This document shows positions 1,829 to 37,147 of a stretch of 64,000 nucleotides of DNA, piece by piece. A program made the position numbers and the translations under genes. How positions within the stretch are numbered: position 1 is the stretch's first letter; every line of letters begins with the position of its first letter. Source of the stretch: Candidatus Heimdallarchaeota archaeon (GTDB taxonomy: Archaea > Asgardarchaeota > Heimdallarchaeia > Heimdallarchaeales > Heimdallarchaeaceae); NCBI GenBank assembly GCA_019057815.1, contig JAHLWR010000017.1, positions 1-64,000 on the forward strand. Reading direction: 5' to 3'. The notes under the pieces are model-generated. The model was given only the letters and a program-made list of their open reading frames with translations, did not search any database and was not told where the DNA came from.

Positions 1829-3361
1829 TTGATAACTAAATACTATCATAAAAAGGATGAAAAGAAAATGAAGTTAAAAAAATTAGTAATCGTTTTTACA
1901 CTTGCAGCACTAATGGTCATAGGTTCTGGAATTTTTATGAATACTACAGCCTATGATATTCCTAGTTCCGAAGAATCAGAACTACAAGATACAGTGCTTA
2001 CGATTGTAACACGACACGATATCGTTATAACAACAGAATTTGAAAAACAATTCCTTGCAACCCCAGAAGCTATAGCTTTGGGAATTACCGATATAGATTT
2101 TAGACAAGCAACAACTGATGAAGGATGGAAAACACTATTACAAGAACCATCTAGAGGCATAGATCTTGCTTGGGGTGGTGGTCCTTCGTTATTCAACACA
2201 ATGGAAAAATGGGGACTCCTCAAACATATAGATGATGTACCTCTAAGAGACTATATTAATAGCCAAGTTCCTGATACTCTAGGCGGCGCTGCTATGAAAT
2301 CCGTTGATGAAAGCGATAATTTAATATGGATAGCAAACGCTATTTCTTCCTTTGGTTTCACAGTTAACCATGACTTCTTAGACACGTATGGTCTTGATGT
2401 TCCTTACACTTGGCAAGAGCTTGCTGATCCTACTTACTATTTAGGTGGGGGAGTTAATGCTATTAGTATGGGAGATCCTCCATTAACAACCTCAAACACC
2501 CGTATTTATCAAATTATCTTACAAGCATTTGGGTGGGAGGAAGGGTGGTCTATTATGACAAGGATGGCAGCAAATGCAGGAATATATCCTGGTTCAGTAG
2601 ATACACGAGCTGCTACGGTAACTGGTGAAGTTGGAATCGCTATGACTATAGATTTCTATGGTGTTATTGCTAATCGTGAAAATCCAAGTTGTGAATATAT
2701 CGTTCCTGAAGGTCAATCGATAGTAAATGGTGACCCAATAGCTATGGGAATACATGTTGATGATGAGGATGCAGCTAAAGCTTTTCTAGAGTATTTATTT
2801 TCCCCAGAAGGTCAAGCTGTCTGGCTAACTGAAAGACTTGATCGTTTACCTGTAAATGTAGATGCTTTTAGTACTCCTTTTGGGCTAGATAAAACATATC
2901 TCTATGGGATATTCAACGCAACATTAGAAACTGAAGGTATTGACTTTAATGAGACCCTTGCTACACAAACACTAGACACAACTATATACTATTTTAAGAA
3001 AACTATTACCGACGAGCATAGTAAACTGCAAAAAGTATGGGGAGAGATGGTAACACAATTGACAGATGCTACAATAGACTTGACAACATATCAAAAATAT
3101 GTTGAAGATCTAGGAAAAGTTGGTATGACTCTAGAACAGGCAATTGAATGGAACGATCAGTATCAAGATGACGCTGATTTTGCCGCTTCAAAAGATTCAG
3201 AATGGAGAAACTTTGCAAAGAACAAATATAATGAACTGCATTATAACTTAACAGGTACCTATCTTTTCACAACTGATACACCTTTTCTATTTACTCCTGT
3301 GATTTTTTCAGTGTTATTTGTCGCTACAATAGTATATGTTGTTAGAAAGAAAAGGAAATAA
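1829..3361 (+). CDS. ABC transporter substrate-binding protein (Fe3+/thiamine-like family), C-terminally anchored; true start probably the downstream MKLKK
   Basis: DLAWGGG, P.TWQELADP and 'AAKAFLEYLFSPEGQ' motifs; adjacent permease; TPF-TM-RKKRK tail. Confidence 0.85.
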   Translation: MITKYYHKKDEKKMKLKKLVIVFTLAALMVIGSGIFMNTTAYDIPSSEESELQDTVLTIVTRHDIVITTEFEKQFLATPEAIALGITDIDFRQATTDEGWKTLLQEPSRGIDLAWGGGPSLFNTMEKWGLLKHIDDVPLRDYINSQVPDTLGGAAMKSVDESDNLIWIANAISSFGFTVNHDFLDTYGLDVPYTWQELADPTYYLGGGVNAISMGDPPLTTSNTRIYQIILQAFGWEEGWSIMTRMAANAGIYPGSVDTRAATVTGEVGIAMTIDFYGVIANRENPSCEYIVPEGQSIVNGDPIAMGIHVDDEDAAKAFLEYLFSPEGQAVWLTERLDRLPVNVDAFSTPFGLDKTYLYGIFNATLETEGIDFNETLATQTLDTTIYYFKKTITDEHSKLQKVWGEMVTQLTDATIDLTTYQKYVEDLGKVGMTLEQAIEWNDQYQDDADFAASKDSEWRNFAKNKYNELHYNLTGTYLFTTDTPFLFTPVIFSVLFVATIVYVVRKKRK

Positions 3362-3520: not shown

Positions 3521-6388
3521 ATGGTCAACACTCATAAGAAAGATGCAGAAGATTCTGGAGAAAAAGCGCGTAAGAAGCGTTCTATAGTAGATTTTCTATA
3601 TGTTAAACTCTTGAAAGATCCCTCAACAAATGTTATAGTATCTTTAATTTCTTTTGTATTCATTGTTTGGATGGTGATACCTCTTTTACTTGTCCTATCC
3701 GGAGCAGTATATTATGATGGTGGTTTTTCAGGAGCAGCTGTAAACCAAGTGTTTACAGACGAAGTGTTTTTTAATTTAAAAGGAGATCCAAACACATATT
3801 TGTATGAGAAAAGCGAAGTTCCGCTTGGGGGACCAAGTGATTCAGTGGTTTATTCAAATGGAATTCTATATTCAGCTGAAAGAAGTGAAGGCATAGAAGT
3901 TTTAAATATTTCAATACCTGAAAATATTACGGAAATCTATCAATATTATGAGGATACTAGTGCTATTTCTGATCTGGCAACAGATGGCTCATATCTTTAT
4001 GCAGCAGCAGGACGAGACGGTTTAATAATTTTCAATATATCAAATCCTTCTGAAGATATGACTAAATTATCACAAGTTTCTATTGGAGTCAACCAAACAA
4101 CTTCATTCATAGAAATTAAAGATGGTTTAGCTTATGTTGGAAAAGATGAAGAAGCAATGTATATCATTGATATCACTGATGTTAACAATCCTATAATTCA
4201 ATCAAGCATTCCGTTTGAAACAAAAATTGAAAGTGTGGCAATAAAAGAAGATATAGCTTTTCTAGTAGGTTATTCTACCGGAATAGTAATGTATAACATC
4301 AGTAATCCAAGCAATCCTCAATATATAGGATCTTACACTGAAGATTCAAAATTGGATGGAACTATCAGGTCTAAAGATATCGAAATAAAAGATGATATTG
4401 CTTATGTTTGTTTGAAAAGTGATGGTTTTGCAGCATTTAATATAAGTGATATTACAAATATTTCTTTAGTTTCTTATATATCCAATGTCTATGGTTACAA
4501 TATAAAAATTCACGGAAATTATGCTTTTGTAGGCGTTGAAGACATAAATCTTAATGATGGATTAAGAATAATAAACATCGAAAATCCTCAAACAATGAAT
4601 GAAATATCTAATTACATTTCTCCACTACTCAAAACAAAAGAAGTTTGTTATGATCCTGATACTAACTTAATCTTTCTGGCAGAAGGAAGGTCTGGTGTTT
4701 ATATATTGGATGCTTCCAATATCGATTCTATTATTTTAGTTAATTCCTATAACGATACAAAAACAATTACTATTCATACATTCAGCGGAGTGAATAGAGG
4801 TGTTGTTTTAAATACTATTATTTTAGGAGTAGTTACAACCTTTTTCTCTATTATACTTGGTACAGCATTGGCTTTTGTTCTTGCAAGATATGAGTTTTTT
4901 GGAAAAAAACTATTCAGTCTACTTGCTCTTGCTCCTTTAATTGTACCCCCATTTATTTCAGGTATGGGATTCAGATTGTTGCTAGGACCAACTGGTTTCC
5001 TAAATAGTTTCGTACTAGAACCAATGTTTGGTGCGAAAATAATAATAAATGGTTTTATTGCAATCTGTTTTGTACAAGTATCACATTTCTATGCTTTAGT
5101 CTACTTGAATGCTTTCTCCTCTTTTCTCAATATAGATCCAAGCATGGAAGAATCAGCTGAAAACCTAGGTGCAAGTAGTTTCAAACTTTTCAGAACAGTT
5201 ACTCTTCCACTAGCAATGCCAGGTATTGGAGCTGGTTCAATATTGGTGTTAATTCTTTCCATGGAGGATGTAGGAACACCACTAGTTTTTGCAAATATGG
5301 CTGATGATATGGCAAAGAACTATTTGACGTATTATATCTTTGAAAATTTTCAAAAAGCAGGAAGTGTTGATATAACTCCAACAGTATTGGTATTAGGTGC
5401 TTTGCTTTTAGTTATAGCTCTAATTGGATTTTTCATGATTCGGAAATATGTTTCACTTAGGAAGTATTCTATGATATCTAAAGGAAGAGCCGGTGAATAC
5501 CGAATGTCCGAAGCTGGATGGAAAGGGCTTATAATCTATCCATTTTTAATCCTATTATTTTCAATCTCTCTCCTTGTTCACATTGGTATCTTTTTGATGT
5601 CCATAATGAAGACTCTAGGGTCTAAACATGCTTATAAGATAGAGTTTACGGCTGAATTCTATCGGAGTATATTCACTTCAGAAACCTACGAAATTGGTCT
5701 TTATATCAGAAATACTCTTCTTTACAGTTTCTTAGCAGCAATAGTAATCATTATTCTTGGTTCCTTAGCTGCATATGTAATGAGCCGGAAAGAATTCAAA
5801 GGGAAGAATCTCTTTGATGCTCTAGTAACAATCCCAATTGCTATTCCAGGAATGGTTTTAGCTATTGGCTATTATAGAACATTTAATTTTGGAGAAATTG
5901 CCAGAACAAATCCAAACTGGTTTACATTAGGACTGAAAGATGTTACCACAGCATTGCGTTTAGATCCTATTGTTGGGGGTGCTGTCGTGCTCTTAGTATT
6001 GGGTTACACTATTCGGAAATTCCCATTCACAGTAAGAGCAGCTTATGCAGGCTTACAACAGACAGATCCAGTGCTAGACGAATCATCATTCAATTTAGGG
6101 GCTGGAAAAGTAAAAACCTTTCTAAAAATTACCATACCTCTGATCTCACTTAATATTTTAGCAGGAGCTTTAGTTTCATTCGTTTTTTGTCTATCGGAAG
6201 TGTCAACAACTATCTTCTTGATTATGAATTTCAAATACGGCACAGTTACTTGGTTAATGGCATGGAACCCACTTCAGTTTCAACTATTCTGCGCTCTTGG
6301 TGTCGTCTTGATGGTTATACAAATTATGAGCTTGTTTATAACCAATATTATACTAGGTTCAAGAGCTGAAGCTATAACAGGAATTTAG
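3521..6388 (+). CDS. Fe3+-type ABC transporter fused double permease with inserted LVIVD-repeat domain
   Basis: Two EAA loops (EESAENLGAS, DESSFNLGAG); ~7-8 repeats such as 'YLYAAAGRDGLIIFNISNP' between TM1 and TM2. Confidence 0.85.
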   Translation: MVNTHKKDAEDSGEKARKKRSIVDFLYVKLLKDPSTNVIVSLISFVFIVWMVIPLLLVLSGAVYYDGGFSGAAVNQVFTDEVFFNLKGDPNTYLYEKSEVPLGGPSDSVVYSNGILYSAERSEGIEVLNISIPENITEIYQYYEDTSAISDLATDGSYLYAAAGRDGLIIFNISNPSEDMTKLSQVSIGVNQTTSFIEIKDGLAYVGKDEEAMYIIDITDVNNPIIQSSIPFETKIESVAIKEDIAFLVGYSTGIVMYNISNPSNPQYIGSYTEDSKLDGTIRSKDIEIKDDIAYVCLKSDGFAAFNISDITNISLVSYISNVYGYNIKIHGNYAFVGVEDINLNDGLRIINIENPQTMNEISNYISPLLKTKEVCYDPDTNLIFLAEGRSGVYILDASNIDSIILVNSYNDTKTITIHTFSGVNRGVVLNTIILGVVTTFFSIILGTALAFVLARYEFFGKKLFSLLALAPLIVPPFISGMGFRLLLGPTGFLNSFVLEPMFGAKIIINGFIAICFVQVSHFYALVYLNAFSSFLNIDPSMEESAENLGASSFKLFRTVTLPLAMPGIGAGSILVLILSMEDVGTPLVFANMADDMAKNYLTYYIFENFQKAGSVDITPTVLVLGALLLVIALIGFFMIRKYVSLRKYSMISKGRAGEYRMSEAGWKGLIIYPFLILLFSISLLVHIGIFLMSIMKTLGSKHAYKIEFTAEFYRSIFTSETYEIGLYIRNTLLYSFLAAIVIIILGSLAAYVMSRKEFKGKNLFDALVTIPIAIPGMVLAIGYYRTFNFGEIARTNPNWFTLGLKDVTTALRLDPIVGGAVVLLVLGYTIRKFPFTVRAAYAGLQQTDPVLDESSFNLGAGKVKTFLKITIPLISLNILAGALVSFVFCLSEVSTTIFLIMNFKYGTVTWLMAWNPLQFQLFCALGVVLMVIQIMSLFITNIILGSRAEAITGI

Positions 6389-6421: not shown

Positions 6422-8046
6422 TACTGGAACAACACTTTTTTTTGCGTAAACCCTATTTTCTCATTAAATGCATCCTGAAAAGTAAATTCAATTACAGTTT
6501 CCCCCACAAAATTAGTCGCTGGAATTTCAACCATTTTTGGTTCACTTGAGTTTTCTTCAATTGTTAATGGAAACAAGTGATTGATATACACTCCTCCTTT
6601 AATAAAAGAAACTAATAATGCACCTGAAACGCTTTCCTTGTTTCTATTATACAAATAAACTGGGATAGTAGTGGGTTTTTGGCTAGGAATCTCTTCAGGG
6701 CAAGTTACTTGAATTTCAATCTGCTTGTTTTGTTTTTCAAGTTCGTATGTAGGAACAGAGTATTTCCACAAAAAAGTACTGAAAAATGAAGCTTGTGTGC
6801 TAGGTATGAAAGATTTTTTATTTAATAGTTCACTTATTTTATTACCATCTTTTTCACTGAAAATTTCCTTATAGGATCTAATTGTTACATTGTGTTTAGC
6901 AATTCGTTCATATCGATAACGTATCTCCTTTATTTGTGATTTGCCTAAACTATTCCCTTTCTGCAAAATAATGCAACTTGGGTCTTGCAGAAAATATCTT
7001 GTTTCTTGTTGCAATGTTGGGTCTACTGGAAACCATAAACCATTAGCAAAAAACTCTGCCTGAGCGTGGTATTCCCATTCATTTATCTCACTCATTTTAA
7101 AGCTAGTTGTTAATCTTGCAGGGATGTTGGAAGCTCTACATAAACTAACAAATAGAGAAGCAAATTCTGTACAGTCACCATATCTATTATCAATAGCGAA
7201 AGCTGCTCCAAAGTCTCCGTTCAATGGACGATAAGTTAGAAGTTTCTGTACTAGCTTTAAATATGCAAGAGCTCGTGAAATTGGTGGATATTCCATATAT
7301 TTACTTGCTAGTTGAATTATCTTTTTGTTATTGGATTCTATAAAGGGTTCAGATTTTGTGAATTGTGAAAAGACTTCTGGATAGTTTACTCTTATTTCTT
7401 CTTCCTTTTCTTCTGCTGCTAGAATGCGTGTCATATCAAAAGCAACAAGTCTAGAAAATATCAGCGCTCTGTAACCTATATTAATCTCTTCTTTAGGCTT
7501 TATTTGGGGAAAATAGAAGCATAACCATTTGTTACCTTCCTTATCAATTATAAGCTGTGAAGGTTTGTAATTACAATCAAGTTGTGTAATATGCTGAAGA
7601 GGCGAAATGTCGGGAGGGATCATGATTTCAATTTCAAAGTTGTTTAAAGGAGTTAGATTAGGATTTATGAAATTGACACCATAATACAATAACATGTAAT
7701 TTATCAATCGTTTTTCTGTTTTGATGAAAACTTGATTTCTAATAGATAAATCACCATCTATTTGGAAAATATACGCACCGGAATATAGGGAAGGTAATAT
7801 TGGAAATGAATACATTTTTCGGGGACCAGTGTCTGACAAATTAATATTTTCAGAATCAACAATAGTACCTATAGGAGAAATAACTAGAATATGAAGATCT
7901 AGATCACGGTTTTGGATGACAAATGGTGGTTCTTCGTCGCGATGAGCGAGGAGTATACTATCACCTACTTCAGCAACAGTGTCTGGAGTTAAAGGATGCG
8001 CATTTCCGTTTCTAACGTGATATAATTGGAGCAAGACAATCACCAA
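6421..8046 (-). CDS. Transglutaminase-like (Cys protease fold) domain protein
   Basis: GDCTEFASLFVSLCRASNIPAR, YHAQAE and W.PVDPT supply a Cys-His-Asp triad. Confidence 0.85.
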   Translation of the reverse strand: MVIVLLQLYHVRNGNAHPLTPDTVAEVGDSILLAHRDEEPPFVIQNRDLDLHILVISPIGTIVDSENINLSDTGPRKMYSFPILPSLYSGAYIFQIDGDLSIRNQVFIKTEKRLINYMLLYYGVNFINPNLTPLNNFEIEIMIPPDISPLQHITQLDCNYKPSQLIIDKEGNKWLCFYFPQIKPKEEINIGYRALIFSRLVAFDMTRILAAEEKEEEIRVNYPEVFSQFTKSEPFIESNNKKIIQLASKYMEYPPISRALAYLKLVQKLLTYRPLNGDFGAAFAIDNRYGDCTEFASLFVSLCRASNIPARLTTSFKMSEINEWEYHAQAEFFANGLWFPVDPTLQQETRYFLQDPSCIILQKGNSLGKSQIKEIRYRYERIAKHNVTIRSYKEIFSEKDGNKISELLNKKSFIPSTQASFFSTFLWKYSVPTYELEKQNKQIEIQVTCPEEIPSQKPTTIPVYLYNRNKESVSGALLVSFIKGGVYINHLFPLTIEENSSEPKMVEIPATNFVGETVIEFTFQDAFNEKIGFTQKKVLFQ

Positions 8047-16601: not shown

Positions 16602-17381
16602 ATGTCAACAAGCAATCTAGAAGAAGAAATTCTAATCAGAGCTGAATTTGAAGGGTTATCTTCTGCAATTCTAAAAGAACTAAAAGAATCACTAGATGAC
16701 ATTAAAATTGAATTCATAACAGATTTACTTTCTAGTTATGTGAACCTAAATATTAATCCATTTGTTCTAGTTGATTTTCTTCCACATATTTGGAATAAAA
16801 ATAACTCAAGTGTTAGTTTACTTCTCTATATTAGTGGAATAGCTCATAAAGCGTTTTATCTCGCACGAGAATACCCTTTAGGTAAGGAACTACCTGTTTA
16901 TCTGAAAGAAGACATCTTGAAGATGTATGAGGGATTGCAAAATTTCGTAAAATCTTGTGGAATCGAAGTTAAAACAGAATTAGATGACAAAATAAGTGTT
17001 ATAATTTCCTTTAAAGAATTGATTCAAGAACTAAAAAAAACTTCTCGTTTTCCTCCTAGGTTGAATGAAATCTTGTGCATTATATCTCACCTTTTTCTAC
17101 AGTTCACTGAATTTAAGAACCAAAAAATAAGAACATTAGATGAATTAGTACTCTTTGTGTCTAGATGTCTGATTTTTTGGAAACTAAAGATCCTATCTGA
17201 TAAAGAACTAGAATTCTGCATGAAAGAATCAGTAACATTATACTCATCAAAGTTTGATTCCAATGAATTTGAAAAACTACTAAGTCTTGAGGTACAGAAT
17301 TACCAATTTTTGCAAATGGGAATAACTCATTCTGATATCAAGATTATAACAAATGTTTACAGTAAAAGTTCAGGATATTAA
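16602..17381 (+). CDS. Hypothetical helical protein
   Basis: 259-aa ORF, no recognisable motif. Confidence 0.55.
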   Translation: MSTSNLEEEILIRAEFEGLSSAILKELKESLDDIKIEFITDLLSSYVNLNINPFVLVDFLPHIWNKNNSSVSLLLYISGIAHKAFYLAREYPLGKELPVYLKEDILKMYEGLQNFVKSCGIEVKTELDDKISVIISFKELIQELKKTSRFPPRLNEILCIISHLFLQFTEFKNQKIRTLDELVLFVSRCLIFWKLKILSDKELEFCMKESVTLYSSKFDSNEFEKLLSLEVQNYQFLQMGITHSDIKIITNVYSKSSGY

Positions 17382-31329: not shown

Positions 31330-31506
31330 GGTTAACTCGACGAATAAAATCGTAGAATTAAGGTATTTTTAATGATTCAAAGTAGAATAGAAGAAAGTAC
31401 AAAAATTGTAAGAGAAGAATCTTTTGAAAAACAAAGGAGAGTCATACGTAAAAGAGCCTTAAAATGAAAATGCATCGAAAATAATGGCTAATATAGGTTA
31501 GTAGTA

Positions 31507-31522
31507 GAAAAAAGTTTAAATA
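31507..31522 (+). promoter_or_regulatory. BRE + TATA box for the downstream ncRNA
   Basis: GAAAAAAG followed by TTTAAATA, ~24 nt before the predicted RNA 5' end (~31546). Confidence 0.6.
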
Positions 31523-31545
31523 GTTATCACGTGTAAGCTTTATTT

Positions 31546-31885
31546 GGTGGATAAAGGGATTCAAGAAATATTGAAGCAAGGAAATGTAAACTGAACAGAA
31601 GGCTGTGCGAAAGCAATCCGATACTCACTCTCCTTCCATGGAGCGTGAAGGAACTTGGTTGACATTTTAAATGGTTTGAACCCCTTTTAGGCTTTTGGAT
31701 AGACCTCCTAAAAGCCGTAATCCCCAGAACCAAACGAAAGTTTGGAACAGATTTCTAGTTCTAAACCAGAAATCTGTCAGAACCCCCAACCAAAAACTAG
31801 GTCAAGAGTGTCGTGTAAGAAAATCCCCTCTGTTCAGGCATTAATTCCTTGCAAAAAGCACTTTTTGTGGTTTCATTATCTGTAA
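31546..31885 (+). ncRNA. Unidentified structured RNA containing a canonical bulge-helix-bulge; predicted precursor of a 254-nt circular RNA (31590-31843)
   Basis: GCAAGGAA(31576-83)/UUCCUUGC(31845-52); central helix AUGU(31584-87)/GCAU(31838-41); 3-nt bulges AAA(31588-90) and UAA(31842-44); inner stem CUGAACAG/CUGUUCAG; several internal hairpins, two with GAAA tetraloops; promoter upstream and T-run at 31890-94. Confidence 0.75.
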
Positions 31886-31989
31886 TTAATTTTTCCGATA
31901 TTTCCTTCAAATATATTAACAAACTTGGAACTATAAGTTTTTAAAGCGGTTTACAACACAAAAAGTAGATATTAACTTAAGGTGATTGC

Positions 31990-32175
31990 ATGGGTCACGG
32001 ATCGCTTCAAAAGTCAGGAAAAGTTAGAAAACAAACCCCTAAAGTAACTGCCAAAGAGAGGCATAGTGCCATTCCTAGAAGAAGTCTTCGTAATAAATAT
32101 GTTAGAAGAGTTCAATTGGGCAAATATGCTGGTCAACCTTCAAGTATGGGTTCTAAACGCGTTAGAAGCAGATAA
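31990..32175 (+). CDS. rps30e: 30S ribosomal protein eS30
   Basis: HGSL.KSGKVRKQTPKV signature. Confidence 0.95.
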   Translation: MGHGSLQKSGKVRKQTPKVTAKERHSAIPRRSLRNKYVRRVQLGKYAGQPSSMGSKRVRSR

Positions 32176-32206
32176 TATTTTACCTATTCATTTTTCTGGT
32201 CATTAT

Positions 32207-33799
32207 ATGAATGACAGAGGTCAAGCTCTAATAGAGATTAAAAAACAGCTTATTGTACAAGGAATACAGTCATCAGAAGAGCTTGATAAAATCAAAAGGA
32301 AGATATCAAGAAAATATCATCTCAAAATCTATCCAAAGAACAGTGAGATTCTTTTCATCTGCAATGATAAGGAAAAAGAACAACTTCTACCTATTCTAAT
32401 GATAAGAAAAGTAAGAACACTTTCTGGAGTGGCTGTTGTTGCAGCAATGACTCGTCCATGGGAATGCCCTCATGGTAAATGCATTATGTGTCCAGGGGGA
32501 CCTGAAGAAGGCAAACCTCAGAGCTACACCGGTTATGAACCTACAGCAATGAGAGGAATAAGAAATAATTATGATCCTTATCTTCAAGTGCAAGATAGAG
32601 TTAAGCAACTGGAAGCTATAGGACATTCAACGGAAAAAGTTGATGTTATAGTAATGGGAGGAACCTTTACTCATCAACCATCAGATTACCAAGAGTGGTT
32701 TATTAAGAGACTATTTGATGGTCTTAATGAAGACGATGCAAGTTCTATACTTGAAGCTCATAAGAAAAATGAGACTACAACGCATCGTTGTGTGGGGTTA
32801 ACTGTGGAAACTCGCCCTGATCAGATTAATACTGAAACTATAGATAGTCTCTTGAACTACGGAGTTACTAGGTTAGAGATAGGCGTTCAAACTGTTTTTG
32901 ATGATGTTTTTGAGAAAATGAACAGGGGCCATGGTTCAAAAGAAGTGATAAACGCTTTCCAATTAATCAAGGATTCAGGTCTCAAAATAACAGCACATAT
33001 GATGCCAGGTTTACCTGGATCGAATTTAAAAAGAGATTTAGAAGCATTTTATACTCTGTTTAATGATGAAAAATATAAACCAGATGAGATTAAAATTTAT
33101 CCTACAATGGTTATACTTGGCACAAAACTATATGAAGATTACAAAAATGGGAGATATGAGCCTTTAACAAATGAGAATACTGCTTCATTAATATCAGAAA
33201 TTAAAAAACTTGTACCTCCTTATGTTAGAATAAAACGTGTACTGAGAGATATTCCAGCTCACCAAATCGCAGCTGGTCCAAATAAAAGTGATTTAAGACT
33301 TGATGCACAGCGAATTTTGCATCAAGAAGGGAAAAAATGTCGTTGTATACGTTGTAGAGAAATAGGGCATTATTTATACAAAGAAAAGGGTGATTTTGAT
33401 GCTTCTAGTATAGCTTATGTCCACAGAAGTTATGCTGCAAGTGGTGGTAGGGAACATTTCTTATCATTTGAAGAAGTTAAAAATGATGTTTTGATTGGTT
33501 TCTTAAGGTTAAGAGAACTGAGTCAAGATTTATTTAGACTTGAGTTTCAGCATGTTTCAACAATTCTAGTTAGAGAACTCCATATATATGGTGAATCACT
33601 TGCTATAAAATCGAAAGTAAAAGCAGACATTCAGTGGCAACATCGTGGATATGGTCGAGAGCTCCTTATAAAAGCAGAGGAAGTTGGGAAAGAAAAAGGA
33701 TACTCCAAGATAGCCGTTATATCAGGAATAGGTGCAAGAGAGTATTATCGGAAATTTGGTTATTCACTAGATGGATCTTATATGTCGAAGAAACTCTGA
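32207..33799 (+). CDS. elp3: Elp3 tRNA U34 acetyltransferase/carboxymethyl synthase (radical SAM + KAT)
   Basis: RTLSGV, CPHGKCIMCPGG, ETRPD, VRELH.YG, QHRGYG, ISGIG.REYY; start moved to ATG 32207. Confidence 0.97.
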   Translation: MNDRGQALIEIKKQLIVQGIQSSEELDKIKRKISRKYHLKIYPKNSEILFICNDKEKEQLLPILMIRKVRTLSGVAVVAAMTRPWECPHGKCIMCPGGPEEGKPQSYTGYEPTAMRGIRNNYDPYLQVQDRVKQLEAIGHSTEKVDVIVMGGTFTHQPSDYQEWFIKRLFDGLNEDDASSILEAHKKNETTTHRCVGLTVETRPDQINTETIDSLLNYGVTRLEIGVQTVFDDVFEKMNRGHGSKEVINAFQLIKDSGLKITAHMMPGLPGSNLKRDLEAFYTLFNDEKYKPDEIKIYPTMVILGTKLYEDYKNGRYEPLTNENTASLISEIKKLVPPYVRIKRVLRDIPAHQIAAGPNKSDLRLDAQRILHQEGKKCRCIRCREIGHYLYKEKGDFDASSIAYVHRSYAASGGREHFLSFEEVKNDVLIGFLRLRELSQDLFRLEFQHVSTILVRELHIYGESLAIKSKVKADIQWQHRGYGRELLIKAEEVGKEKGYSKIAVISGIGAREYYRKFGYSLDGSYMSKKL

Positions 33800-34071
33800 A
33801 AGGATAAACATGGTAAAGATTTAAGCGTTCTATTATCTTTGTTTGTTGTTTAAATCTTATATGTTTGTAGATAATGCTTCTATTAATGGACAAATATCAT
33901 TCTATTGGTATTTTTATTTCAAATTTACTACCATTTTTCCAAAAATTCAAAAGTAGGTTGCCTGCGATTTGTGATTCAATAAAAAACTAAGGTTCTAGAA
34001 TGTGACTGTACCTTAGAATTTATATTTGTTCAAATCATAAATTAATTAAGCGATTACATCAAGGTGACACT

Positions 34072-35070
34072 GTGTCCAAAAAGACGAGTCAGGAACTCTT
34101 AAAACTTGTTAGCCTTAAATTACGTCTTAACCATTTTCAAACAGTCAACCTTTCGTCTAGTAGTAAAGCTTGTTTTGATATTATAGCAAAGAAAGGAAAT
34201 CGCACAATTATTCTGAAAATAGAACCTTATGTTGATAATTTTAATAGAGAAAAATCGTATGAATTAAAGAGCATAGCGCAATTCCTAGAGGCTTCTCCTA
34301 TTATTGTTGGAACAAGAGGTCGGCGATTCAAAAATATAGATGAAGGACTAGTCCTTCTACGATACGGTATACCCGTTGTGAGCCCCGAAACTCTTGAATC
34401 TTTAATAGCTGAAGGGATACCACCAATCGTATATTGTAGCAGAGGTGGATATTTCGTGAATATTGATCGAAAACTTTTACGCAGAGCAAGAATGGAGAAG
34501 AACTATAGTTATACTGAGCTTGCTCATTTGGTTGGAGTAGCTAGAAGTACTGTTTACGAATATGAACACAATATAAATCCCCCTCCTGAAATAGCTGCTA
34601 GGTTGGAAAACGTTCTAAAAACCTCGATAGCTGAAGGGATTCCCATATTTGAAATAGAAATACAAAACGAAGAAAAACCAGAATCTTATCTGTCAGGTAA
34701 TCTATCACCGTTCAAAGAGGAAATAGCTTCTCTTTTAGAGAATTTGGGTGTAATTTCACAGTTTTGGACACATCAATCTCCTTTTGATGCATTCGGAGAA
34801 CATCAAAGTGACCAAGTTAAGAGTGGTTTGAATGTTCTAGTATGTGTAGATGATTCTCATCATAGCAATGTGATAAAAAGAATTAATACAACTGTCAACA
34901 TAGCATCGTTGGCAAAAAGAAGGGCTATAATGATAGTAGATGAAGAACAAGACAATCAGATTTCACAAAAAATGCCTACTTTCACGTTGGATGAACTACA
35001 ACAAATGCAAAGGGCATTTGAACTTGTAAAAAAATGGGCAAAAAAGCAAAAAGAATTGAAGTTTACATGA
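34072..35070 (+). CDS. Conserved archaeal Cro/XRE HTH transcriptional regulator with PD-(D/E)xK-like N domain
   Basis: CFDIIAKK..LK, RGGYFV.ID, 'LRRARME....ELAHLVGVARSTVYEYE'. Confidence 0.85.
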   Translation: MSKKTSQELLKLVSLKLRLNHFQTVNLSSSSKACFDIIAKKGNRTIILKIEPYVDNFNREKSYELKSIAQFLEASPIIVGTRGRRFKNIDEGLVLLRYGIPVVSPETLESLIAEGIPPIVYCSRGGYFVNIDRKLLRRARMEKNYSYTELAHLVGVARSTVYEYEHNINPPPEIAARLENVLKTSIAEGIPIFEIEIQNEEKPESYLSGNLSPFKEEIASLLENLGVISQFWTHQSPFDAFGEHQSDQVKSGLNVLVCVDDSHHSNVIKRINTTVNIASLAKRRAIMIVDEEQDNQISQKMPTFTLDELQQMQRAFELVKKWAKKQKELKFT

Positions 35071-35096: not shown

Positions 35097-35780
35097 CTAC
35101 TTTTGTCCAACTATCATAACATGATCTTTCTCAAAAGATTCAAGGTCAATTGTCTCTAAGATTGTTAATCCAAAAGATTTCAATTGTTCTTCAACTTCTT
35201 TGTAAATAAGCTTTGGTTCTTTTGTGACGTCAATACTCCTTGCCTTTACAGCTATGAAAAAGTATCCGTCTTTTTTGAGAAAAGCTTTGATGTTTGTATT
35301 CAGTATCTCTGCTTGAGTAGGTTGAGCCACATCTTCATAAAGGATATCAACCATAGGGACAGTAAAACTATAACCTTCTGGGAAGCGTGCATCAGCATGT
35401 ATTGGAATAATGTTTTTTCTTCTTTCTGCTATATTTATCAAGTCACTAACTGATCTTGAAGAAAATTCTACTGCATAAATTACACCATCTTCACCAATCA
35501 TATCTGAAACATGTGATACTGTTGTTCCTGAAGCTGCTCCAAGATATAAAATTGAACATCCTTTGGAAAATGGGTATGTTTTCATGTTATTACGTATCGC
35601 AGCAGCAAGTTTACTTTTAAAGGGGTCAAAAGTTCTGTATTCTTTTTCATCAATTTTAATTAGGCGTTCAGTATAGACTTGATATCCTGGATCTGCATTT
35701 AAAGTAGCTAAACGAACATTTCCATCTCTCAACGTGATCCAAAATAAATCGTTATGTTCATGGTTTTTTAATTCAAACAT
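35097..35780 (-). CDS. flpA: Fibrillarin (box C/D 2'-O-methyltransferase)
   Basis: SKLAAAI, LYLGAASGTTVSHVSD, YAVEFS, DVAQP.Q, KARSID. Confidence 0.97.
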   Translation of the reverse strand: MFELKNHEHNDLFWITLRDGNVRLATLNADPGYQVYTERLIKIDEKEYRTFDPFKSKLAAAIRNNMKTYPFSKGCSILYLGAASGTTVSHVSDMIGEDGVIYAVEFSSRSVSDLINIAERRKNIIPIHADARFPEGYSFTVPMVDILYEDVAQPTQAEILNTNIKAFLKKDGYFFIAVKARSIDVTKEPKLIYKEVEEQLKSFGLTILETIDLESFEKDHVMIVGQK

Positions 35781-35785
35781 TCTTA

Positions 35786-37147
35786 TCAATTACTCCTCTG
35801 CTTTTTCTTTGGCGATTCCGTTCTCTTTTTATTATATCTTGGTTTTCCTTTAGTGTATCTTGGTTTTCCTTTGCTGTATCTTGGTTTTCCTTTATCGTGC
35901 CCAGATCTAGGTTTGCTGTATCCAGATCTTGGTCTGCGGTCACTAGATGGTTTAAAATCATATTTGATAGGTTCTTTCTTGCCTTCAGGAGGATTTTCAT
36001 ATTTTTTCTGAATTTCTTCGATTTTGCGTTCTAAATCCTTGCGTAGTTGATCTCCAACAAATTCACCATGAAATGCGTCTACACGAGCTGCTATAGTCAA
36101 TCTCCCTGCAATAGCCCGAGCTATGTTTCCTCTCTGCCACCATGGACAACTGTGTAATTCAGGAATTTGATAAATGATTCCATGTTTAGGTGGTTTTGCA
36201 CCTGATTTTAAAGATCGGAAAAGAGCTTTTTCCGCTCCGAGAAGCTGAACTGTACTTGCTGGTAACATTGCCATTTCTCTTAACCCTCCTGCAAGTGCAA
36301 TCAAACGTGCAGATATTGATGATCCTGCAACTGCTTGCAGATTGGGCGCTACTCGCATTAATTCTCTTTCAATCCACGCTTCTAATCTCTCCCTCTCCTC
36401 ATACAAATCAAGATTTCTTGATGCGAATTGTCGAAGTGGAAGTAAATCTTCAAAAGAATAATCAGCTCCCATTGAACTTTTAGCTTTTTCTGCGATTTCA
36501 GCACTTTTTTGGGAACTAAAACCAAATTTCTGGAGTTTTTCTGCAGTAAAATCACTTCTCGAACCAATCTCTGTTATTATTTTACAGAGAGTAACATGAT
36601 TCTCAATAATCTTCAGAATTTCAGGAAAGTGAGTTCCATACCACTCTCGGATTCTTGAAACAAATAAGTTAGCAGTCTTGTCAATGTCATCCATCGATAA
36701 TATCGCATGAACTACCATTTTGTCTACACGTTGAGAACTGTGAGCAACTTTCTTTTTTGAAAGAATGATACCCACTTCTCGGACAAGTTCTACATACTCT
36801 CTTATATTAGAAATATAATTATCTTCAATCAAAATACCAGTAAGATTTTCTTTAAATTGAGTATAAACCTCTGATTCTAAATTTAATTCGCATTTTTTTC
36901 CAACTGAACGTCCAAAATGAAGAATATCGTTGCTATTAGTGATTATTTTTTCTATTTCAATTTCATTTAATAATCCTTGAAGCTCTTCAGAATTGTTGTA
37001 CAAAGTTAAATTGTGTATTTTTTGTGCTATTTCGTTAGCATTCTTCGGATAAAGTTTCTTAGCAATAAGATTATCATCAACATCATAAATGAAAAATCCA
37101 GTAATATCTGAAAATATCTTAACTGTCATAAGTCTCTCAGAACTCAT
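35786..37147 (-). CDS. nop5: Nop5 (Nop56/58) box C/D RNP protein with repetitive basic tail
   Basis: REWYGTHFPE, PASTVQLLGAEKALF, PKHGIIY, IAARVD. Confidence 0.97.
   Translation of the reverse strand: MSSERLMTVKIFSDITGFFIYDVDDNLIAKKLYPKNANEIAQKIHNLTLYNNSEELQGLLNEIEIEKIITNSNDILHFGRSVGKKCELNLESEVYTQFKENLTGILIEDNYISNIREYVELVREVGIILSKKKVAHSSQRVDKMVVHAILSMDDIDKTANLFVSRIREWYGTHFPEILKIIENHVTLCKIITEIGSRSDFTAEKLQKFGFSSQKSAEIAEKAKSSMGADYSFEDLLPLRQFASRNLDLYEERERLEAWIERELMRVAPNLQAVAGSSISARLIALAGGLREMAMLPASTVQLLGAEKALFRSLKSGAKPPKHGIIYQIPELHSCPWWQRGNIARAIAGRLTIAARVDAFHGEFVGDQLRKDLERKIEEIQKKYENPPEGKKEPIKYDFKPSSDRRPRSGYSKPRSGHDKGKPRYSKGKPRYTKGKPRYNKKRTESPKKKQRSN
35835..35935 (-). repeat. Imperfect 21-bp and 18-bp repeats encoding (KGKPRY)n/(KPRSG)n in the Nop5 tail
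   Basis: tatcttggttttccttt recurs three times at 21-bp spacing. Confidence 0.85.

Follow-up and report, generated by a model that had tools for sequence, protein, structure and literature searches.

In a 64,000-nucleotide stretch of Candidatus Heimdallarchaeota archaeon (GenBank assembly GCA_019057815.1, contig JAHLWR010000017.1, positions 1 to 64,000 of the forward strand; hereafter the window), an otherwise "empty" gap of 650 bp is filled by a gene for a small RNA enclosed by a bulge-helix-bulge (BHB) motif. Metatranscriptome contigs from three independent studies carry this RNA with its ends joined at the predicted junction, and the BHB shows compensatory changes in five genera. We consider it very probable that the locus is a dedicated single-copy gene, that its transcript is processed at the BHB and circularized into a ring of 254 nt, and that the ring represents a new family of noncoding RNA (ncRNA) known so far from one family of Heimdall-group archaea, the one that includes Heimdallarchaeum.

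The BHB at 31576-31852 (plus strand) is canonical, with an 8-bp outer helix, a 4-bp central helix, and the 3-nt bulges AAA and UAA. The first-pass annotation of this DNA, which was made from the sequence letters, had described this geometry on the plus strand and had listed six helices inside it; the geometry agrees with that description, and the six helices lie where they had been placed. The unconstrained minimum free energy (MFE) fold of 31546-31885 includes the BHB and all six inner helices (-99.3 kcal/mol; z = -4.6 relative to dinucleotide shuffles, with none of 100 shuffles folding as well). Folding stability is equal on the minus strand; the assignment to the plus strand stands because the minus strand turns the family's recurrent G-U and U-G pairs into A-C and is without a promoter and terminator in the right order. 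The promoter, a B recognition element followed by a TATA box (BRE/TATA), had been identified correctly and is conserved among homologues (Table 1). The T-run at 31890-31894 that had been named as the downstream signal is present as well, but the closer one at 31862-31866 appears to be the likelier terminator, since in homologues the T-run comes right after the outer helix. The gap had also been said to lack a credible open reading frame (ORF), and indeed no ORF longer than 70 amino acids (aa) occurs at the locus, where a 68-aa antisense ORF has no Pfam match. The G+C content of the ring is 43 to 49%, compared to 33% for the genome.

RNA cover was assessed by comparing 31480-31920 with contigs of four metatranscriptome runs from four studies. 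The stretch is present in DNA metagenomes from marine sediments and cold seeps, where the DNA runs contain the collinear genomic form, and partly in six metatranscriptomes. All RNA contigs in the four metatranscriptomes fall inside 31589-31842, while promoter, leader, and trailer have zero contig cover there, which is consistent with a ring although it is not proof of their absence. In runs X16 and X19, a contig passes from 31842 directly to 31589; the exact joint is ambiguous by 2 nt, a range that includes a joint from 31843 to 31590, and the joined string is the predicted junction GGCATTAACTGAAC (GGCATTA joined to ACTGAAC). The same back-joint, with one variant letter, was recovered from run X5. 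In X19 and X5 the contig measures 285 nt, equal to a 255-nt cycle plus 30 letters (k-1), as is characteristic of a path that closes on itself in the assembly graph, and both contigs share an AA insertion and a 1-nt deletion with the sister species (L004). It had been proposed that cutting each bulge behind its second nucleotide releases a 254-nt circle, and the back-joints of three studies, with cycles of 254 or 255 nt, agree with that proposal. Since three independent studies match the predicted junction to the nucleotide and RNA cover is free of flanks, a circular RNA is by far the best reading of these data. With no RNA contig reaching into the leader or the trailer, we take the circle to be the stable product.

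Two limits of these data weigh against the circle, as does a departure from the canonical motif in one genus (g3, below). The RNA evidence consists of assembled contigs rather than raw reads, without strand information, a quantitative ring-to-linear ratio, or an RNase R control, and the comparison with DNA runs covered the collinear form, not the joined form. A different objection is that the ring might be a maturation intermediate that a second cut opens into a linear, circularly permuted working RNA, in which the inner stem P1 would persist as a capped hairpin. As a rule, archaeal 16S rRNA passes through circular intermediates that are reopened, as does 23S rRNA in Pyrococcus (PMC7758197, PMC12918454); permuted 5S genes exist in this same genome, and the RNA contig of run X17 begins exactly at 31590 and does not close. 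Nevertheless, we regard reopening as unlikely. As two contigs are complete cycles, one of them (X19) at a depth of 438, every 31-mer of the ring is present, including any opening site, and these cyclic contigs argue against reopening as the only fate of the ring. Furthermore, the gene order as it stands folds into a sensible closed multibranch structure without permutation, and no second conserved processing motif was seen.

The circular-RNA gene is found once in the genome; the only weak model match elsewhere, at C38:137162-137415 (17 bits), lies in coding sequence and was rejected as a second copy. BLASTn searches recovered the gene from the sister species (94% identity) and, in a second genus, from 18 of 19 genomes; a homologue search with a sequence-only model, without structure, returned it in full length from 27 of 30 genomes, covering all five genera (g1 to g5) of one family. 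Neither search gave a homologue that holds up in the 17 other genomes of the order, where a weak match in one genome (G033) appears unrelated, and five genomes from three further families showed neither a BHB nor a family motif in the region preceding S30e. Similarly, the exact pattern GACCTCCTAA-N6-22-CCCCAGAA occurs in 22 of the 30 family genomes and was absent from all 369 genomes searched elsewhere in the phylum. By name, its true matches are "Candidatus Heimdallarchaeota" metagenome-assembled genomes and the complete genomes of Heimdallarchaeum aukensis and H. endolithica. Matches in Hadesarchaea and Desulfurococcaceae are attributed to chance, as these two archaeal matches fail the sequence model; bacterial matches were also judged to be chance, only on the basis of the random matches expected for an 18-base pattern.

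The homologues, whose comparison had been proposed as a check on BHB conservation, contain compensatory changes across all five genera. In covariation statistics on 24 sequences with 500 shuffles, the BHB central helix was 100% paired, with two of its four pairs changed on both sides; P1 (helix 3) was 99.2% paired, with 6 of 10 pairs changed on both sides; and P2 (helix 5) was 93.8% paired, with four of eight so changed. None of the 500 shuffles matched the observed covariation, and pairing dropped to 35 to 56% in slid registers. Across homologues the central helix takes the form CUGC/GCAG, CUAC/GUAG, or GUGU/GCAC, and the inner stem that of CUGGACAG/CUGUCCAG, CUGAACAAGAAG/CUUCUUGUUCAG, or CCAGAUAGGAAG/CUUCCUAUCUGG; a further explicit compensatory variant is CCAGAUAG/CUAUCUGG. 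A genome-wide BHB scan returned 328 matches, almost all of them noise in this AT-rich genome, and thus gave no guidance. Given compensatory changes in five genera and a predicted ring that is seen in RNA, the motif described here is beyond chance. The departure in g3 is a relaxed 3' bulge, with one or two extra unpaired A residues opposite it at the junction with the outer helix, and cleavage there would therefore depend on an enzyme of broad specificity. The splicing endonuclease EndA of Asgard archaea is of the broad-specificity (alpha-beta)2 type with an L1 insert (PMC5829648), which the relaxed g3 bulge fits. Two EndA-type (tRNA_int_endo) genes, of 203 and 214 aa, and RtcB are encoded in the genome.

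The gene order SBP-RNA-S30e-Elp3 is retained in three genera and part of a fourth. Such synteny might be expected if the core were an intron-like by-product and the functional product were the ligated leader and trailer (GGAAATGTAAATTCCTTG), or if the locus were a regulatory leader of S30e-Elp3. We find this hardly plausible, since it is the core that is abundant, with no RNA contig for leader or trailer, and the core that is far better conserved than its flanks. In homologues the trailer amounts to just the outer helix strand followed by the T-run, and in many g3 genomes other genes stand between the RNA gene and S30e.

We compared the ring to known RNA families, none of which accounts for it. 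Rfam 15 at gathering scores gave no match in the whole window, including the linear core for which this comparison had been suggested, and local-mode searches of the locus and two diverged homologues at E <= 10 produced noise with no family recurring. ARAGORN detected no tRNA in the window, and the flanks of the core are a leader and a T-run rather than cloverleaf exons. Signal recognition particle (SRP) RNA (RF01857) did not match the locus and is encoded in full length at G000:C43:220804-221110 (90.5 bits). RNase P/MRP RNA (RF00373 and relatives) matched neither the locus nor the two diverged homologues; the RNase P RNA of the genome lies at G000:C42:2095-2419 (149.5 bits), and inspection of the locus by eye revealed no G-rich strand able to pair with GAAAUCCCC as in CR-I/CR-V of P/MRP. 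As for rRNA, the 16S and 23S genes are both on contig C23, and two permuted 5S genes (RF00001) elsewhere in the genome have no BLASTn similarity to the locus. Thus, the expectation that the host is neither tRNA nor rRNA was borne out. A box C/D small RNA was rejected because the ring is without UGAUGA (C box), and the CUGA at the start of P1 is lost in g4. An rRNA guide is likewise unlikely, as the longest complements to pre-16S and 23S rRNA were no longer than those of shuffles. Full-text literature searches found no report of this RNA.

A strongly diverged or rearranged known RNA, such as an RNase P/MRP-like paralogue, a trans-supplied rRNA fragment, or a guide RNA, could still have been missed by the models, as Rfam also misses or underscores the permuted 5S genes of this group. 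By eye there are loose resemblances of GAAAUCCCC to CR-I of P/MRP and of GAACC to loop C of 5S rRNA, and high abundance is typical of housekeeping RNAs. However, permissive searches of diverged homologues recovered no recurring family, RNase P, SRP, 16S, 23S, and 5S RNAs are all present in full length elsewhere in the genome, the ring has neither a C box nor rRNA complementarity beyond chance, and it is restricted to one family, unlike a universal RNA. We therefore consider a disguised known RNA very unlikely.

The features of the locus are collected in Table 1. Ligation turns P1 into a 12-bp hairpin whose 7-nt loop spans the junction and reads GCAUUAA (GYANAAA in the family consensus). Besides P5, the multiloop contains between one and three hairpins that vary (P6, P7, and lineage-specific inserts). 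P4 is invariant in g1 and g3, while in g2, g4, and g5 its register is shifted with pairing retained, as judged by eye, so that support for this helix is modest. The best-conserved letters of the RNA lie outside the helices: GGUKRAAC-CCCC followed by the U-tract, UGACCUCCUAA in the loop and 3' strand of P5, and the further blocks ACCCCAGAAC, UCUGYCAGAACCCC, and GAGNNAGAAU. Within P5, GACCUCCUAA is invariant, although its 3' part pairs with a strand that is not the same in every genus; because the motif is unchanged though its pairing partner varies, we read it as conserved for its sequence. Eight of its letters, ACCUCCUA, stand unchanged at the 3' end of the 16S rRNA encoded in this genome. In four of the five genera the ring carries three to four copies of GAACC, where 0.2 to 0.4 would be expected (P <= 0.006).

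Table 1. Features of the circular-RNA locus in window coordinates
Feature	Position(s)	Strand	Remarks
BRE/TATA promoter, GAAAAAAG + TTTAAATA	31507-31522	+	Same AAAAAGTTTAAATAG box at equal upstream distance in homologues of all genera
5' leader	31546-31575	+	Discarded on processing; start inferred ~25 nt past TATA; no RNA contig cover
5' BHB half	31576-31590	+	Predicted cut after 31589; RNA contigs start at 31589/31590
BHB outer helix, GCAAGGAA with UUCCUUGC	31576-31583, 31845-31852	+	Read from sequence
BHB central helix, AUGU/GCAU	31584-31587, 31838-31841	+	One U-G pair
BHB bulges, AAA and UAA	31588-31590, 31842-31844	+	Opposite strands, separated by exactly 4 bp
Excised, circularized RNA	31590-31843	+	254 nt; contigs of X16, X19, X5
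Inner stem P1, CUGAACAGA.GG with CC.UCUGUUCAG	31591-31602, 31826-31837	+	9+2 bp in window
P1 5' strand	31591-31602	+	Pairs with 31826-31837; capped by junction loop in ring
P1a hairpin, UGC-GAAA-GCA	31606-31615	+	In g1, g2, g5; absent from g3, g4
P2 5' strand, CGAUACUC	31619-31626	+	Partner GAGUGUCG at 31806-31813; covaries
P3 variable hairpin, CUCC/GGAG	31630-31643	+	Missing from one g3 subgroup
P4 5' strand, UUGGUUG	31655-31661	+	Partner CAACCAA at 31787-31793
Single-stranded U-tract + GGUUUGAACCCC	31663-31684	+	First GAACC motif; invariant block
P5 hairpin	31690-31716	+	Stem covaries; invariant GACCUCCUAA at 31702-31711 in loop and 3' strand
CCCCAGAACC	31722-31731	+	Conserved C-rich GAACC motif
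P6 and P7 hairpins	31730-31745, 31747-31777	+	Number and length vary in family
CAGAACCCCC	31778-31787	+	Conserved C-rich GAACC motif
J2/1 linker, UGUAAGAAAAUC	31814-31825	+	Family consensus GAGNNAGAAU; invariant AGAA
3' BHB half	31838-31852	+	Predicted cut after 31843
T-runs (T5)	31862-31866, 31890-31894	+	Archaeal terminator signals; in homologues, T-run directly after outer helix

These features suggest a route from transcript to ring and, with less assurance, a role for the ring. An (alpha-beta)2 splicing endonuclease would cut past the second nucleotide of each bulge, after 31589 and 31843, RtcB would ligate the 2',3'-cyclic phosphate to the 5'-OH, and the leader and trailer would be degraded after excision. 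The ring itself would then be the working form, with circularity conferring resistance to exonucleases. It may serve as a multivalent platform, presenting three to four single-stranded (A/U)GAACC motifs, C-rich linkers, the U-tract, and the invariant loop GACCUCCUAA. The last of these would copy the 3' end of 16S rRNA (the anti-Shine-Dalgarno region). The ring might then bind and titrate either a protein that reads such sequences or G-rich RNA of the Shine-Dalgarno type.

That the ring acts as a decoy or a ribonucleoprotein scaffold is a tentative suggestion, which the motifs make possible rather than probable. Protein-titrating small RNAs of the CsrB/RsmZ type and eukaryotic circular RNA sponges present repeated single-stranded motifs. 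A decoy or platform is favored here because the repeated unpaired motif between hairpins, the invariant loop, the high abundance, and the nuclease-proof ring resemble such titrating and scaffold RNAs. Repetition of the unpaired motif, a hallmark of sponge RNAs, was found in four genera in the form of GAACC, with a single copy in g4. The likeness is one of architecture only (a repeated motif between hairpins, abundance, and a stable ring): the CsrB/RsmZ motif is GGA rather than GAACC, and there is no homology. The comparison is a lead and not a membership.

Several points speak against a decoy. Only one exact GAACC is present in g4, CCUCC is partly paired in the window's own fold, and the 8-nt identity to the 16S rRNA 3' end was spotted after the fact. 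Complementarity of the ring to 16S or 23S rRNA does not exceed chance, we identified no partner protein or RNA, and the decoy function is read from motifs only. A more elaborate version, which we regard as doubtful, is that the ring is an abundant, lineage-specific regulator of the translation apparatus. Its copy of the 16S rRNA 3' end (the anti-Shine-Dalgarno/D-site region) and its GAACC sites, similar to 5S loop C, would serve to titrate mRNAs of the Shine-Dalgarno type or else a protein of the ribosome or of ribosome biogenesis, and the last ~55 nt of the gene would have been recruited in g3 as a 3' element or recombination site of surface-protein cassettes. If this were true, the g3 recruitment would tie the ring to the control or exchange of surface-protein cassettes.

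In g3, the last ~55 nt of the gene (P2 3' strand, J2/1, P1 3' strand, 3' BHB half, and T-run) recurs one to six times downstream, in copies that are ~90 to 100% alike and that each lie at most ~20 nt behind an ORF. At L058 (G012:C1:620300-637200), for example, copies are found at 3153-3201, 3948-3995, 6271-6323, 7076-7121, 7784-7878, and 16605-16652, and 3'-end repeats occur also in G021, G042, G022, G009, G015, and G020. The associated ORFs are diverged paralogues (26 to 47% identity, ~220 aa) without a Pfam family, with a weak Atlas lead to archaeal surface proteins and with NosD-like beta-helix genes nearby. Several readings are possible: the repeats may mark attachment sites of serial insertions, the series may be a cassette array of the integron kind, or the repeats may act as a common 3' element in competition with the ring for some factor. 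An integrase or virus origin was rejected, as the cassettes hold no integrase domain and have no IMG/VR match. Circularizing cassettes were also rejected, since no 5' BHB half precedes them, except for one 15-mer. This exact 15-nt copy of the 5' BHB half (CTGCAAACTGAACAG) is located at L058:1487-1501, in the space that separates the RNA gene from the first repeat, where it falls inside a NosD-like ORF on the other strand; a match of this length would not be expected by chance in 17 kb.

Processing at a BHB is an established route to circular RNA in archaea. Stable circular tRNA introns, such as the box C/D guide in the Haloferax tRNA-Trp intron, are excised at a BHB and ligated into rings that can themselves be functional, and circular RNAs of Sulfolobus were reportedly cataloged by Danan and colleagues in 2012. 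Circular introns are cut from a host tRNA or rRNA, whereas the ring described here has no host gene and is flanked by a short leader and a terminator. A closer precedent is the permuted, circular SRP RNA of Thermoproteus tenax and T. uzoniensis, reportedly described by Plagens and colleagues in eLife in 2015. There, too, a dedicated ncRNA gene, a BHB, and the tRNA-splicing machinery yield a stable circular RNA, one that is functional in Thermoproteus. However, that RNA belongs to a universal family and has a permuted gene, while the gene of the ring is collinear, matches no family, and coexists with a separate SRP RNA gene. Circular pre-16S and pre-23S rRNA, as well as circular or permuted mature 23S rRNA, have been described in archaea (PMC12918454, PMC7758197, bioRxiv 10.64898/2026.03.23.713588). 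Like the ring, these RNAs are excised at a BHB in a leader/trailer processing stem and circularized, and they also occur in Asgard metatranscriptomes; unlike it, they are ribosomal and mostly intermediates, whereas the ring is a 254-nt nonribosomal RNA from its own promoter. The permuted 5S rRNAs of Heimdall-group archaea come from the same organisms and are likewise small stable RNAs with a BHB-like flank, AAA/UAA-type bulges, and a predicted circle, but their halves are swapped, while the ring gene is not permuted and has no similarity to 5S.

Seen against this background, the suggestion of an "undescribed ncRNA class" made at first pass holds for the RNA family but not for the BHB route through EndA and RtcB, which was already known. 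New are the family itself and a collinear stand-alone gene that serves solely to make a ring, as well as the finding that this RNA occurs, and is abundant, in Heimdall-group Asgard archaea. Archaeal BHB processing has so far yielded circular tRNA introns, rRNA intermediates, and the Thermoproteus SRP RNA, and here it yields an abundant ring of no known family in close relatives of eukaryotes. The ring and the permuted 5S genes together suggest that splicing-type circularization may be a general way of building stable RNAs in this lineage. For annotation, the locus provides a gene model in an otherwise empty gap. Heimdallarchaeum is available in enrichment culture and as complete genomes (PMC8813620). 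With these and a known junction the RNA is directly testable, and its invariant motifs are targets for mutation and pull-down.

The two circularly permuted 5S genes are located at G000:C39:47709-47866 (minus strand) and G000:C43:238930-239087 (plus strand), in each case with the 3' half first and helix I closed by a short loop. The C39 copy is flanked by a 10-bp outer helix, a UCAG/CUGA central helix, and UAA/AAA bulges, and when rotated it gives a 120-nt RNA with the canonical three-way 5S fold. RF00001 misses both genes because they are circularly permuted; for Heimdallarchaeum, Wu et al. (PMC8813620) stated that 5S "could not be predicted." The genes for 16S and 23S rRNA have divergent orientations and are not linked. 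Near its 3' end, the 16S gene (G000:C23:18421-19894, minus strand) has a hairpin insertion of ~30 nt, AAAUACAU...AUGUAUCGCAAG, between CCUGCGG of helix 45 and UGGAUCACCUCCU, and its 5' leader contains CACCUCCUU.

The RtcB gene (G000:C38:129362-132214, minus strand) is a 1,015-aa frame in which the Pfam match is split (residues 1-50 and 49-426) by ~500 aa, an interruption that is most likely an intein. A fibrillarin and Nop5 pair, the core of the box C/D ribonucleoprotein, lies at 35097-37147 of the window (minus strand), 3 kb downstream of the RNA gene, with no evidence of a link between them. The interval between, 31990-35070, encodes S30e (31990-32175), Elp3, and a helix-turn-helix protein (34072-35070). 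The longest Elp3 ORF, starting with GTG at 32066, overlaps S30e; because homologues align only from residue ~41 to 48 onward, the true start of Elp3 is probably near 32190-32210.

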